Assembly: GCA_963842945.1 (NCBI GenBank)
Contig: CAWJIM010000018.1
Location: forward strand, 64,001-128,000
Source: an uncultured Gemmatimonadales bacterium
Lineage (GTDB): Bacteria; Gemmatimonadota; Gemmatimonadetes; Gemmatimonadales; GWC2-71-9
Reading direction: 5' to 3'
DNA: 64,000 nt
The notes beneath the pieces were generated by a model that searched no databases, was not told where the DNA came from, and saw nothing but the letters and a program-made list of their open reading frames with translations. A program made the position numbers and the translations under genes. Shown here one piece after another: positions 49,313 through 55,030 of this stretch. How positions within the stretch are numbered: the stretch's first letter is position 1; the number at the start of each line of letters is the position of its first letter.

Positions 49313-50439
49313 GCGCCGAGCGCCTCCTTGAGCTTGGACCAGAAGCCGGGCGCGCGCTTGGGTGCCTCTCCTTCGAGCTTGGCAAGCTCGCGGAAAAGCC
49401 GCTCCTGCTCGTCCGTGAGGCGCTCCGGCGTCCACACATGTACTCGCACCAGGAGGTCACCCTTGCTGTCCTGTCCCAGGACCGGAAGTCCCTTTCCCCG
49501 AAGCCGGAGCACCGTCTCCGGCTGAGTACCGGGAGGAATCCGAAGCCGCTCTTCGCCGTACGGCGTGGGCACCTCGTGCTCACCGCCGAGCGCCGCCTGG
49601 GAAAATGCGAGCGGAAGGTCGAAGATCAGGTCGTCGCCCTGACGCTCGAACCGATCGTCCTCCTTGATATCCAGCATCACGAGGAGATCGCCGCTGGGCC
49701 CGTTGCGCGGGCCGGCCGCACCCTGTCCCCTAAGCGTCAGATAGTTGTTGGTGGACACGCCGGCGGGGATATCCACCGTCACACTGCGGTCGCCCCGCAC
49801 CCGGCCCTCGCCCCGGCAGACGTCACAGGTCTCGCGAATGACGCTGCCCTCCCCGCCACAGGTGGGACATGGTGCCACCGAGATGAACTGCCCGAACATG
49901 CTGCGGGTGGCGCGGCGGACCTCGCCGCTCCCGTTGCAGGTGCCGCAGGTGGTCGGCTTGGTCCCGGGCTTCGCTCCGGTGCCCTCGCAGGTGGTACAAC
50001 GCTCCAGACTCTTGAGCTTGACCGTCTTCTTGGCGCCGAGGGCGACCTCCTGCAGTGTGAGCCGAACGGTCACCCGGATGTCCTGGCCCCGCCGCTCTTC
50101 CGCCCTGGTCCGCCGGCCGCCGAAGAGGCCCTCGAGGCCACCCATGGCGCCGAAATCGCGCATGAAGATGTTCAGCGCTTCGCTCAGATCCACGTGGTGA
50201 AAGCCGAAGCCACCGGCAGCTCCGCCGATCCCGGCCCTGCCGTAGCGATCGTAGGCTGCCCGTTTCTGCGGATCGCGCAGGATCTCGTACGCCTCGGTGA
50301 TCTCCTTGAACTTCGCCTCTGCTTCCGGCGACTGGTTCCGGTCCGGATGGTATTCCATCGCCAGCTTCCGGTAGGCCTTCTTGATCTCGGCTTCGGAAGC
50401 GTCCCGGGAGACACCGAGCAGGGCGTAGAATTCGCTCAC
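49309..50439 (-). CDS. dnaJ: chaperone DnaJ
   Basis: HPD, four CxxCxGxG repeats. Confidence 0.98.
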   Translation of the reverse strand: MSEFYALLGVSRDASEAEIKKAYRKLAMEYHPDRNQSPEAEAKFKEITEAYEILRDPQKRAAYDRYGRAGIGGAAGGFGFHHVDLSEALNIFMRDFGAMGGLEGLFGGRRTRAEERRGQDIRVTVRLTLQEVALGAKKTVKLKSLERCTTCEGTGAKPGTKPTTCGTCNGSGEVRRATRSMFGQFISVAPCPTCGGEGSVIRETCDVCRGEGRVRGDRSVTVDIPAGVSTNNYLTLRGQGAAGPRNGPSGDLLVMLDIKEDDRFERQGDDLIFDLPLAFSQAALGGEHEVPTPYGEERLRIPPGTQPETVLRLRGKGLPVLGQDSKGDLLVRVHVWTPERLTDEQERLFRELAKLEGEAPKRAPGFWSKLKEALGA

Positions 50440-51471
50440 TCCAGCAATCCTTCCACCAGACGGCTGGTATGCTCCACCAGGCCGATGATTTTGTCGTAGG
50501 GCATGCGGGTAGGGCCCATCACTCCGATAACACCCTTCAGGCTGCCGGCCTCGTAGGAGGAGGTGACCAGGGTAAAGTCGCTGAGCCTGGCATCGGGATT
50601 TTCGGCCCCGATGGTCACGGAAAGCCCCCGCTGCCGGCGGGATTCCAGCGCCTGTTTCAGGAGATCGCGTCCCTCGGTGAGCCGGAGGAGCTCGCGCATC
50701 CGGGCGTTGGAGGCGAACTCCGGCTGATCCGCCAGCATTTGGGCGCTACCCAGCACCACCCCATACTCGTCCGTTCGACAGATCGAAGAGACCATCGCCC
50801 TCGGCGATGAAGATGTTGAGCAGCTCGCGATCGTCCTCGCTCCCGCAGTCCCGTAGCCGCTCGGAAAGCGTCGCCCGAATATCCTTGAGGGTGAGTCCAG
50901 CCAGCCGCTGATTGAGGATCTTCGCCACCTGCTGCACGGCGTTGGGAGCCACTACCCGGGGGACTTCCACGAAGATCGTGCGGACCACACCGCTCCGGAG
51001 ATTGAACACCAGGAGCAGGCGTTCGGAGCTCACCTGAACCAGCTCGAGTCGCTCCAGCACCACCTGATCCAGAGCGGGCGCCACCGCCACGCCCAGCTCC
51101 TGGGTAAGAACTCCGAGGACCTGGGCGGCTCGCCGGAGAATCTCTTCTACCGCACTACGGGGGACTGCCAGCTCCGCTCGCAGCGTGTGCTGTTGCTCGT
51201 GACTCGGGGGAGACAGCCGCATGATGGCATCCACATACACCCGATAGGCCCGGTCGGTGGGGATCCGCCCGGCGGAGGTGTGCGGATGAAAGAGGAAGCC
51301 CTTGTCTTCCAGTTCGCTCATGGTGTTGCGAATCGTGGCTGGAGAGACGCCCAGACCGAACTTCCGGGCAATCGTCTGACTGCCCGCCGGCTCGGCGGTC
51401 TCGATATACGTCTGCACCACGGCTTCGAGCACCCGAAGCTCGCGCTCGCTCAACTGCTCTGATAGCGGCAT
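50436..51471 (-). CDS. hrcA: heat-inducible repressor HrcA (frameshift near 50770)
   Basis: SPATIRN.M, PHTSAGRIPT, GPTRMPY. Confidence 0.95.
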
Positions 51472-51480
51472 GGAACAAAT

Positions 51481-52579
51481 CTAGACGGAGGCTACCAAGG
51501 CGTCCAAACGGAGCCAACCTTCCGGGGTGAGCCGGATCCGGCCGTCCTGGAGCTCCGCCCACCCGCTTCTGATCCAGGTAGTTCGGAGGGCAGACGCAAT
51601 GCTATGCTCTGGCAGCCCGTCCCTGGTTCGGAGGCCCAAGTACAGCTCCTCCAACCGGATGGCCGATTCGTCCAGCTCCTCCCGGCCGCCCAGGGGTGAG
51701 CCTCCTGCCTGCAGCGCGCGCTCGTATTCGGCCCATTCCCTGACGTTCCACCGGCGTTGCCGGCCGAAGCCACTGTGGGCCGAGGGCCCCAGCCCAATGA
51801 AGGGTGCTCGTTTCCAGTAGGCCGAGTTGTGCCGGGCGCGGCGCCCGGGTAGTGCGGCGTTGGAGACCTCGTAGTGATCGTACCCCCGCTGGCGAGATCG
51901 CCTGATGGGCGGCCAGAAACTCCGCGGCATAGCGCTCCTCGTCCACCGGGGTCAGCTCGCCTCGGCCGGCTCTATGACCCAGCACGGTGTGGGGCTCGAC
52001 TGTGAGGCCGTAGAACGAGAGATGCTCCGGTTCCAGGCCGAACGCGAGGTTCAGGTCTGTTTCCCAGTCCCTGGCGAGGTCGGCCGGAAGGCCGAAAATC
52101 AGATCCAGCGAGAGGTCCTGAAACCCGGCGCAGCGGAGCGCCTCCACCGCGGAGGGTACCTGCTCGGCCGTGTGGACCCGGTGCATCCACTGGAGCACCG
52201 CGGGATCAAATGATTGGACTCCCAACGAAATCCGGTTCACCCCCGCGGCTCGCCAGGAGGCCGATACCGGAAGGGTCACGTCATCGGGGTTGGCTTCCAA
52301 CGTGATCTCGGCGTTCGCCGCAAGTGGCCGGTCGCGGGTGAAGCGGTCGAGCAGTCGGGCGATGGCGTCGGGCGGGACCCGGGACGGCGTGCCTCCACCG
52401 AAGTAGATGGTTTCAATGGCGGGCGATTCATCCCAGACCGGATCTTCCAACCAGAGGGCCCATTCGTCGAGGACTGCGTGGGTGTACGCGGCGGACGGGA
52501 CCTCCCGCCTGACCGCGATGGCAAAGTCGCAGTAGCTGCAGCGCCGGGCGCAAAATGGGACGTGGACATACACGTGCAT
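51481..52579 (-). CDS. hemW: radical SAM heme chaperone HemW (frameshift near 51900)
   Basis: HVPFCARRCSYCDF, GGGTPS, YEVSN, HNSAYW. Confidence 0.92.
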
Positions 52580-52639
52580 GCCTGAATGTAGGCCCCACAT
52601 GGGCGTGGAGGGCAAATAGCCTTGAATGGTCGTATGAGG

Positions 52640-52865
52640 GTGAGCCGGGTGGGCACTCGCGCAGGCTCCGCGACAACCGCTACTCCACCCCCCTGGGAGC
52701 CTGCGGCTCGCACCCACCCGGCTCACGCTGGTGCATGCTGACAAGTCGATCTCAGCGACTCTGAGACCATGCAAATGGAATGGGGATGGGTTCGATGGCA
52801 GCGTCCCAGGGGAAGGGTTGCGTGGTTGTCGCGGACGCTGCCCGAGGACCCATCCCCATTCCATT
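52640..52865. repeat. pair of inverted ~90-nt hairpin elements with conserved loop
   Basis: 52640-52726 (minus) and 52774-52865 (plus) share TCCCAGGGG-N11-GGTTGTCGCGGA closed by covarying stems. Confidence 0.75.
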
Positions 52866-52877
52866 CCCTACCCTGCT

Positions 52878-53993
52878 TCAGAATGACCGACGGACTCGCC
52901 GGAACACCCGGCCCGGCCCCTGCTCTACCACACCAGCAATCTCCAGCCCACACAGAATCCCCAGCACATCGCCAATCGGCCGGCCGCATCGGGTTGCCAA
53001 CTCATCAGGGTGCAGCGGTTGACCGCCGATGAGCTCCGCCAATTCCCGTTCAGCGTGTGACAAGGTCTCCGGCAGGGGCGGCTGAGCTGGACGAGCCACG
53101 CTCCCTTCGGCAGATGGCGCTCCGAGCTCGGGGAAATGCTGCAAGAGGTCGCCCGGATCGAGGAGCGGCGTTGCCCCGTCGCGGATCAACCGGTTGGTAC
53201 CCTCCGAAACCGCGCTGGTGATGTTACCCGGTACGGCCATCACTTCCCTGCCCTGATCCAGCGCAGTTCCCGCGGTGATGAGCGCGCCCGAGCCGACTGC
53301 CGCCTCGACCACTACCGTAACCCGCGACAACCCGCTAATCAGCCGGTTCCTTCGGGGGAAGCTCCCGGCGTGGGGCCGCTCTCCCGGGGGAAACTCGCTG
53401 AGCAGTAGTCCTTCGGCTGCAACCCGCTGGTAGAGTTTGCTGTTGGCCGCGGGATAGACCACCCCGTGACCGTTGCCCAGGACTCCTATCGTGGTTCCCC
53501 CAGCATCGAGTGCCGCGGCATGCGCCACCGCGTCGAGCCCTCGGGCCATGCCGCTCACGATTACCGCGCCGGCCCGAGCGGCCTCTCCCGCAACCTCCCG
53601 GCACACCGAGGCTCCATAGCTCGAATGGTCGCGGCTCCCTACCACTGCGGCCGCTGGACGGGAGAGCAGAGCGCGATCTCCCAGCGCAAACAGGACCGGG
53701 GGCGGGTCGGGAATGTGACGGAGAAGGGTCGGATACTCCTGGTCGTCCGGCAGCAGGACGGTTACACCCAGCTTCTCAGCGGCCTCGAGCGTCTTTTGCC
53801 CGATGTCCAGAGGTGTCTCTTTGAGCGCAGTCGCCATGGCGCGAGAAAACCCGGACACGGTGCATAAAAGCTCGAACGGCGCCGAATGGGCGCCGAGTGG
53901 TGAGGGGTAGGCTGTGAGGAGCGCCGCAAGCCGGGCTGGTCCCATACCCGGCACTTGGGTGAGCGCCAGATACGCGACTCGCTCGTCGGGCAT
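52878..53993 (-). CDS. dprA: DNA processing protein DprA
   Basis: VVGSR, VSGMARGLD, FPRRNRLISG, SGALITA. Confidence 0.95.
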   Translation of the reverse strand: MPDERVAYLALTQVPGMGPARLAALLTAYPSPLGAHSAPFELLCTVSGFSRAMATALKETPLDIGQKTLEAAEKLGVTVLLPDDQEYPTLLRHIPDPPPVLFALGDRALLSRPAAAVVGSRDHSSYGASVCREVAGEAARAGAVIVSGMARGLDAVAHAAALDAGGTTIGVLGNGHGVVYPAANSKLYQRVAAEGLLLSEFPPGERPHAGSFPRRNRLISGLSRVTVVVEAAVGSGALITAGTALDQGREVMAVPGNITSAVSEGTNRLIRDGATPLLDPGDLLQHFPELGAPSAEGSVARPAQPPLPETLSHAERELAELIGGQPLHPDELATRCGRPIGDVLGILCGLEIAGVVEQGPGRVFRRVRRSF

Positions 53994-55030
53994 CACCCGT
54001 CTTCCTCCGACCAGGAGATCTCCGTCTCCGCGGTGTCCGCTTCGCTGCTTTTTGCCTGCTCCACCCATCTCCAGAGAAACTCCTTCAGGTCCTCGATGCC
54101 CTGCCCACTGGCGCTCGAGACGGGAATGATGCCGGCCGCCTCAGGAGCGCTCACAACCGGCAAGGCATCGTCGGGATGAAGGAGATCCGCCTTGGTGAGC
54201 AGAACGACATGGTTCTTCTGGGTGAGCTCCGGGCTGTACGCTTCGATTTCCTGGCGGAGCCGCTGATAGGTTGCCTGGGGATCTTCGCTCTCGAGCGGAA
54301 CCAGGAAGGCAAGCACCCGGGTTCGCTCCACGTGCTGCAGGAAGCGGAAGCCGAGTCCCTTGCCCTGGTGGGCTCCTTCGATGATGCCGGGGATATCGGC
54401 CATGACAAACGTGCGATGGCCCGAGAGTGCGACCACGCCGAGGTTAGGCTCGAGCGTGGTGAACGGATAGTCTGCGATCTTGGGCCGGGCCGCCGATACT
54501 ACCGACAGTAGCGTGCTCTTGCCGGCATTGGGCTCGCCCACCAGTCCCACGTCGGCAATGAGCTTCAGCACCAGCTCGATTTGCCGGTCTTCACCCTCTT
54601 CTCCGGGCTCCCACTCGCGCGGAGCCTGATGAGTGGAGGTGGCGAATCGGGCATTGCCGCGCCCACCACGTCCGCCTCGCGCCACCCTCAGCGTGTCTCC
54701 GGCCTGGAGCACTTCCCCCAGGAGTTGTCCGGTGTCCGCATCGCGAACGACCGTGCCGGGCGGGACCGGGAGATAAATGTCTGCCGATGAAGCGCCGGTC
54801 TGGGTTTTTCCTTTCCCGTGTTCTCCCCGGTCTGCCTTCCAGGTGGTCCGGTACCGGTAATCAAGCAGAGTGGCGAGGTTGGGATCGCCCTTGACGTAGA
54901 CACTGCCGCCGTGGCCACCGTCGCCGCCATCAGGGCCGCCCTTCGGCTTGTACTTGAACCGGGCGAAGGAGCTGGCCCCCGATCCTCCGGTGCCACCCAC
55001 CACTTTCACCACCGCGCGATCGATCAGCAT
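53993..55030 (-). CDS. obgE: GTPase ObgE
   Basis: GGPDGGDGG, GEPNAGKS, YPFTT, DIPG. Confidence 0.97.
   Translation of the reverse strand: MLIDRAVVKVVGGTGGSGASSFARFKYKPKGGPDGGDGGHGGSVYVKGDPNLATLLDYRYRTTWKADRGEHGKGKTQTGASSADIYLPVPPGTVVRDADTGQLLGEVLQAGDTLRVARGGRGGRGNARFATSTHQAPREWEPGEEGEDRQIELVLKLIADVGLVGEPNAGKSTLLSVVSAARPKIADYPFTTLEPNLGVVALSGHRTFVMADIPGIIEGAHQGKGLGFRFLQHVERTRVLAFLVPLESEDPQATYQRLRQEIEAYSPELTQKNHVVLLTKADLLHPDDALPVVSAPEAAGIIPVSSASGQGIEDLKEFLWRWVEQAKSSEADTAETEISWSEEDG

Follow-up and report, generated by a model that had tools for sequence, protein, structure and literature searches.

The window, by which we mean the whole 64-kb stretch of genome G000 analyzed here (G and L labels denote genomes and loci, respectively), contains a 298-nt spacer between two Pfam-identified genes: dprA, the upstream neighbor (52878..54068, minus strand; PF02481), and a hemW-like radical SAM gene, the downstream neighbor (51481..52579, minus strand; PF04055). 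Two hairpins, A and B, occupy this spacer head to head and begin 13 nt past the dprA stop codon. Both hemW and hrcA (50436-51471, minus strand) are broken across two frames in the assembly, probably because of assembly indels.

Hairpin A (52637..52729; folding strand minus) consists of arms at 52637-52653 and 52713-52729, a 10-bp inner stem at 52660-52669 and 52696-52705, and a G-rich loop of 26 nt (52670..52695, minus strand) with a conserved CAGGGG start and GG-N-TGTC end. Hairpin B (52774..52865; folding strand plus) has arms at 52774-52806 and 52833-52865, an inner stem likewise of 10 bp, a G-rich 26-nt loop (52807..52832, plus strand) and a purine internal loop formed by GAT on the 5' side (52794..52796, plus strand) and CGA on the 3' side (52843..52845, plus strand), which could pair as tandem G-A. 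Both units belong to what we call type A below, and scored 84 and 105.9 bits, respectively, with our covariance model R1; orthologues of A are found at loci L013 and L031. The first-pass annotation had described two such hairpins, with the G-rich strand minus in A and plus in B, and the coordinates bear out their place between hemW and dprA as well as the inner stem and loop sizes. On these strands both are predicted to be very stable (RNA folding z = -5.99 for A and -5.98 for B; none of 200 shuffles was equally stable), the opposite strands fold too (z of -4.41 and -8.05 in the shuffle test), and DNA folding parameters gave the same picture. The spacer between the units (52730..52773, no strand assigned) carries a weak third palindrome. 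Its annotated words exist (TGCATG at 52732, TCTCAG at 52750, CTGAGA at 52761 and CATGCA at 52768), but it did not rise above chance (z -1.09; 31 of 200 shuffles were as good) and was not kept at the orthologous site in L013 or L031.

A and B are 72% complementary over 58 nt. A contig from public DNA run X2, which may be the source sample, matched 52783-52871 with no differences, and L013 and L031 carry the A/B pair at their orthologous sites; therefore, the pair is not an assembly artefact. With regard to expression, a -10-like hexamer, TACATT (52585..52590, minus strand), lies 5 nt upstream of the hemW start, and TA[GC]ATT, CATATT or a close variant stands 5-7 nt before this start in 90 of the 92 genus genomes. 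This suggests that hemW is probably leaderless, and thus that the A/B pair would lie outside the hemW leader, in the 3' region of dprA. Neither a U-tract terminator nor a sigma-70 promoter was found at the window's A/B pair. RNA runs X19 and X20 matched only 5% of the words, and no contig crossed the hairpins. The idea that hemW extends N-terminally across the hairpins was rejected: the frame stays open for 96 codons in the window and 97 in L013 but for just 55 in L031.

Distribution and conserved structure of the hairpin family

Hairpins A and B are copies of an apparently undescribed, genus-restricted family of imperfect palindromes of ~95-100 nt. The annotation had recognized no known family here, in agreement with our searches: at the gathering threshold, Rfam matched two tRNAs in the whole window and nothing at the hairpins, and at E up to 1 there were no matches in seven loci carrying types A, B, C and E (the sister types are described below). 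No description of the family was found in the literature searched; the supplementary repeat lists of PMC6006769 and PMC3733652 may contain relatives.

The annotation had counted two copies and proposed a covariance-model search of Gemmatimonadota genomes. Profile searches revealed ten type-A copies in G000, namely the A/B pair, a second head-to-head pair on contig C5 and six singles. Model R1 found the family in 17 of the 103 genus genomes (1-21 matches each, with opposite-strand echoes counted), and a broader model, R2, which adds sister type B, in 34 of 103; G096 alone holds ~20 very similar copies. When 150 genomes of the order and 150 of the phylum were surveyed, all matches but one (E 5e-4) fell in the genus, the best 27 candidates per genome being scored, so that weak copies may be missed. 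The type A/B family thus appears not convincingly present outside the genus. An exact pattern gave 39 matches in genome contigs, of which the 24 titled Gemmatimonadales or Gemmatimonadaceae were full hairpins (L015 weakly); the other 15 were at most partial, with E no better than 0.02, and were discarded. The same pattern occurred at 17 metagenome loci and in no viral contig. One unpublished genome, G047, contributes one of the 103 genus genomes and one tree row, and no claim depends on it alone.

Comparison of 69 type-A copies (alignment A3) revealed a fold that is maintained while its sequence changes. In the stems, 90.4% of cells are paired versus 75.3% after shuffling, and none of 500 shuffles reached the observed values, although the copies are kin and this count is no probability; slid-alignment controls gave 35-46% pairing. 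Changes on both sides were observed in 29 of the 33 stem pairs. Identity averages 60% in the outer stems and reaches 96% at the loop start. On the G-rich strand, G-T combinations far exceed A-C in the stems (154:11 in the 69 copies; 38:3 among 18 representatives below 80% identity; 17 versus 3 once the three commonest columns are removed, p 0.003), and therefore the G-rich strand is the folding strand. G-T/G-U and G-A pairs do not separate a DNA fold from an RNA fold. Covariation, the G-T bias and a conserved loop core support the earlier proposal that selection acts on a single-stranded fold and its loop sequence.

Several details of the motif needed revision. A loop of exactly 26 nt holds for A and B, but in the family this length is found in 41 of 69 copies, the others having 25 (23 copies), 24 (three), 21 (one) or 27 nt (one). 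The middle of the loop, annotated as 11 free positions, retains G at alignment columns 51, 52 and 55 in 65, 68 and 62 of the 69 copies. Around it lies a fixed core, AGGG/GTC (A43/G67, G44-C66, G45/T65 and G46/G64), whereas the stems are free in sequence. The CGA/CGAG internal loop of the annotation exists, but is better described as a symmetric 3x3 purine loop, Y-G-R-N-G opposite C-N-G-A-G, with G28 conserved in 68, G81 in 69 and A82 in 66 of 69 copies; when the third base of the loop is G, its partner switches to C. These two properties suggest tandem G-A pairs. A GNA mini-hairpin reading of the internal loop was rejected, as A occupies the third position in just 37 of 69 copies and a G there goes along with a C opposite. 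Likewise, a G-quadruplex in the terminal loop was rejected: four GG runs occur in 48 of 69 copies versus 41.5 in shuffles, and the window's hairpin B has just three runs.

Sister types, genomic placement and candidate enzymes

Hairpins of four further types, B to E, adjoin type-A copies. All have a long outer stem, and most copies seen have the same purine loop: the internal loop is CGGAG or CGAAG opposite CGGAG in type B and TGRAG opposite CGRAA in type C, and type D and upper-clade type E are alike in it. An AGGG start and GTC end of the terminal loop are common to A, B and D, and C and D share the inner stem GCGTCAG/CTGCAGC. Type D measures ~140 nt and combines a variable terminal stem and two G-A loops with a fixed heterodimer pairing. 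G000 has nine type-D units, eight of them in head-to-head pairs (loci L434-L438; C3:184825-185000, C4:92900-93260, C21:162630-162990, C24:168960-169310 and C24:480750-481100), and 13 and four matches were found in G118 and G023, respectively. A genus-wide C/D pattern allowing two mismatches matched like its control and was excluded from the counts. Type E is present in 38 of 103 genomes versus four control matches. The link of E to the superfamily is weaker than that of the other types because, in other clades, type E lacks the purine internal loop and some of its copies pair throughout. In G093, the segment C3:846374-847044 consists of tandem type-E pairs with a 219-bp period and is BIME-2-like.

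All 90 type-A copies examined fall outside called genes. The 104 distinct A-E sites comprise 42 convergent, 53 tandem and 9 divergent gaps, compared with 130, 737 and 215 among 1082 background gaps, so that convergent gaps are enriched for A-E (42/104 vs 130/1082, p 7e-12); these context counts rest on gene calls from a crude codon-score script. Where genes are in tandem, the G-rich strand is sense in 25 cases and antisense in 20 (orthologous copies included), so that unit orientation does not depend on transcription. Local GC skew was too flat for a comparison of replication strands. Units occur singly, tail-to-tail and in mixed-type clusters, and adjacent units are oppositely oriented in 58 of 60 cases.

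Comparison of relatives revealed both gain and replacement. Of the 104 sites, 15 recur between genomes, ten of them with a different mix of types. An insertion of ~180 bp in G096 is missing in all four relatives, which have short spacers there, and a second is missing in four of five, the fifth (G071) having a type-E pair at that place. With relatives just ~80% identical, neither a target duplication nor sharp ends were discernible at filled and empty sites. The dprA-hemW spacer itself measures between 5 and 1151 nt across 86 genomes (75 nt or less in 40), and its filling differs between genomes, with palindromes of type A, B, C or E or of the GIY-YIG kind; type A occupies it in five of 92 genomes (four by pattern plus L062), and close relatives of G000 are without the A/B pair. 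Orthologous copies at the hemW and M50 sites show double changes that preserve pairing, and in several orthologous pairs single changes disrupt base pairing.

The annotation had suggested looking for co-occurring HUH/RAYT or GIY-YIG genes, but no cognate gene was found beside the copies. A-E patterns lay within 350 bp of none of 53 Y1 loci, two of 47 GIY-YIG loci (both with their own different palindromes), one of 31 DUF559 loci (a pattern-only match), none of nine GxxExxY loci and none of four reverse transcriptase (RT) loci; one type B lies ~700 bp from a Y1 (L127). In all-vs-all BLAST of the ORFs around 47 loci, only orthologous housekeeping neighbors recurred. RT is present in one of five carrier genomes, neither G000 nor G096.

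Y1, GIY-YIG, DUF559 and GxxExxY genes are each flanked by a different repeat of their own. Small GIY-YIG genes (such as L078, L082, L091, L093, L106, L111 and L179) are flanked by GTCATCC(C/T)GAGC-type palindromes at 17 of 47 loci, several of them inside the dprA-hemW spacer; these palindromes resemble CGTC REPs and form a family separate from type A. Across the phylum, DUF559 endonuclease genes have short C/G palindromes with a G-rich tail on both sides (L386, L395-L424), and strong DUF559 matches occur in 44 of 401 genomes and in none of 24 in the genus of G000. Descent of our family from these G-rich tails was not convincing (22.9 vs 20.9 for letter shuffles and 22.2 +/- 0.33 for G-run-preserving shuffles). 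A second Y1 family is flanked by its own palindromes with a CCGA foot and a GCGAC...GTCGC stem, a REPtron-like arrangement (L125-L127, L318, L319, L321, L322), and CACCACGGAG-type repeats flank GxxExxY genes (L425-L430). Finally, ~80 sites in G000 carry intergenic inverted arrays of 7-9-mers.

A Y1 gene is present in 29 of the 34 A/B-carrying genomes versus 21 of the 69 others, a co-occurrence that amounts to about two clade-level losses on the tree (FastTree, hemW+dprA, 92 of 103 genomes). G007, which is 97% complete, lacks a Y1 candidate but has repeated type D with the purine loop, and the Y1-negative genomes G012 and G083 are rich in type E. The sole Y1 of G000 is an intact, single-copy gene at a fixed place beside atpH with subclass-1.2 motifs (C21:326695-327147, equivalent to L040:1483-1935, plus strand; orthologues at L120-L124, L260-L284 and L306-L324). 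A GGCAC...GC motif, which we take to resemble a sigma54 promoter, is conserved upstream in 38 of 42 loci, often with AAACATA further up. This gene is apparently a vertically inherited, domesticated HUH nuclease. It is the best candidate seen for the enzyme that spreads A-E, a role that we would assign to it tentatively and with more doubt than confidence. Subclass 1.2 Y1 genes have so far been reported without typical terminal hairpins.

Relation to known repeats and alternative explanations

The family is multi-copy, intergenic and patchy, shows gain and type replacement, forms alternating clusters, and maintains the fold of its G-rich strand. REPs are described as intergenic, clustered palindromes with mismatched stems that are read as ssDNA by TnpA-REP (PMC6006769, PMC3733652, PMC3686654). 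Our family resembles REP, REPIN and BIME elements, and especially the long bulged subclass 2.2, in being composed of intergenic, multi-copy, lineage-specific imperfect palindromes with a stem-bulge-stem layout, inverted doublets, alternating clusters, one folding strand and classes that replace each other among relatives. However, its units measure ~95-150 nt, whereas REPs are given as 21-65 nt; its conserved loop has 25-26 nt instead of 2-5 nt; and it has a symmetric purine loop in place of a bulge of 1-3 nt (PMC6006769, PMC3686654). Furthermore, no Y1 gene in the 53 loci is flanked by family hairpins, and among REP feet sought 0-2 nt 5' of the stem, GTAG occurs in none of 69 copies, GTGG in 12 (control 2) and GCGG in 13, none of them at the window's copies. 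The family is therefore not filed as REP, from which it differs in length, GTAG foot and flanking RAYT.

Other known repeats are also similar in part. CGTC REPs are described in PMC3733652 as dispersed palindromes, mostly head-to-head heterodimers, without a dedicated transposase, and the family shares the dispersal, the head-to-head arrangement and the lack of a flanking enzyme of this kind with them; however, its stems are ~30 bp long compared with 8-9 bp in CGTC REPs (PMC3733652), and none of 69 copies has a CGTC tag at the foot. Like ERIC/IRU, RUP, Correia and CIR elements as outlined in PMC2229807, it measures 100-200 bp, forms long stem-loops, is intergenic and is presumed non-autonomous, but no terminal TA or target duplication was seen, its sister types share internal motifs, and it does not consist, as CIR does, of two arms with a GANTC site. 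TnpA-Y1 genes of subclass 2.6 and class 3 likewise come with hairpins of atypical secondary structure that are copied to other places in the genome, but those hairpins flank their Y1 gene (PMC6006769).

On balance, we think that the family probably works like REP/REPIN/BIME elements, i.e. as non-coding, non-autonomous DNA that multiplies within the chromosome, is then passed on vertically, and is read as ssDNA by a trans-acting enzyme. An earlier suggestion that the hairpins are the ends of a non-autonomous, REPIN-like ssDNA element fits as far as the REPIN-like and non-autonomous character is concerned; the word "ends" does not, as each hairpin is a whole unit and occurs alone. By analogy with TnpA-REP and IS200/IS605 (PMC6006769), the G-rich strand would fold while single-stranded, at a replication fork or in a transcription bubble, and a trans-acting protein, most likely, as with REPs, an ssDNA nuclease of the HUH/Y1 type, would read the G-A loop and the loop core and nick near the hairpin foot. 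Copies might then be inserted at or beside existing palindromes just downstream of genes and be transcribed passively in 3' regions, where they may stabilize or terminate mRNA, in the present case at the 3' end of dprA.

The alternative that the fold matters chiefly as RNA, either as 3'-UTR stabilizers or terminators or by binding a host RNA-binding protein through the G-A loop and the G-rich loop, with spread being secondary or RNA-routed, is unlikely. In its favor, tandem G-A loops are common RNA motifs, the hairpins are enriched downstream of genes (convergent gaps in 42 of 104 sites vs a 12% background), old orthologous copies persist and keep their pairing at the hemW and M50 sites, and E. 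coli REP325, a terminator and stabilizer in a 3'UTR, offers a precedent (bioRxiv 10.64898/2026.03.23.713779). However, the G-rich strand is on the mRNA in just 25 of the 45 tandem cases, yet only this strand keeps G-T/G-A pairing; the window's pair has neither of the signals sought, U-tract or sigma-70; RT was found in one of five carrier genomes, and not in G000 or G096; and an RNA role leaves the new insertions unexplained. The more specific idea that the pair controls hemW in cis, as a regulatory RNA or an aptamer switch with kissing loops, deserves almost no credence. Retention of the A/B pair at the site in three genomes would agree with it, and cross-pairing is the predicted fold in L013, but separate hairpins are favored in the window and L031, and the kissing or switching that had been proposed is not supported as a function. 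Loop complementarity follows automatically from A and B forming an inverted pair, and many copies stand alone or have a partner of another type. A new ncRNA or aptamer class at dprA-hemW, another earlier candidate, is not supported, in view of ten dispersed copies with unrelated neighbors, the near-even strand counts (25 vs 20) and the lack of the pair in most relatives (type A in just five of 92 spacers), and the -10-like hexamer directly before hemW points to a leaderless mRNA.

Covariation could also arise from arm-to-arm template switching or gene conversion without selection, the elements being inert remnants. Palindromes do self-correct through template switching, some type-E copies of other clades are fully paired, and several orthologous pairs carry single changes that break pairs. 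Nevertheless, this explanation seems improbable: such correction should remove mismatches, whereas the G-A loop (68/69, 69/69 and 66/69) and the unpaired core persist as the stems diverge to ~60% identity, G-T but not A-C is kept (17 vs 3, p 0.003), and types B to E have this purine loop as well. Very improbable, in turn, is that A and B represent a MITE's terminal repeats, or sites for cassette recombination that resemble attC. Their 72% complementarity over 58 nt recalls the former, and attC sites have a comparable anatomy, with a stem, an internal loop, a second stem, a large loop and a single folding strand. This reading is largely refuted by single units and alternating arrays: units stand alone, tail-to-tail or in mixed-type clusters, and orientation alternates in 58 of 60 cases rather than following a direct order around cassette ORFs. 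In addition, no target duplication was seen (relatives being ~80% identical), and there is no invariant AAC/GTT core in A3.

Returning to the REP-like reading, one may go further and regard A-E as one superfamily that shares a G-A loop recognition module, swaps its other modules, and owes its spread to an unlinked, trans-acting enzyme, which might be the atpH-side subclass-1.2 Y1 with its sigma54-like promoter. We consider this whole scheme unlikely as it stands; if true, it would describe REP-like repeats served by an enzyme that the host controls and that is not linked to them. For CGTC REPs, PMC3733652 raises as an open question how "orphan" palindromes spread when no transposase flanks them. 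The present family offers a defined substrate, with its determinants (G-A loop, loop core and folding strand), and one testable candidate enzyme. It also carries a caution for RNA-motif screens, as strong covariation here belongs to a mobile repeat and not to a riboswitch. With this family, REP-like repeats gain a long and structurally rich member from a soil lineage that is abundant but little studied, and in which orthologous sites trade hairpin types while the G-A loop is retained.
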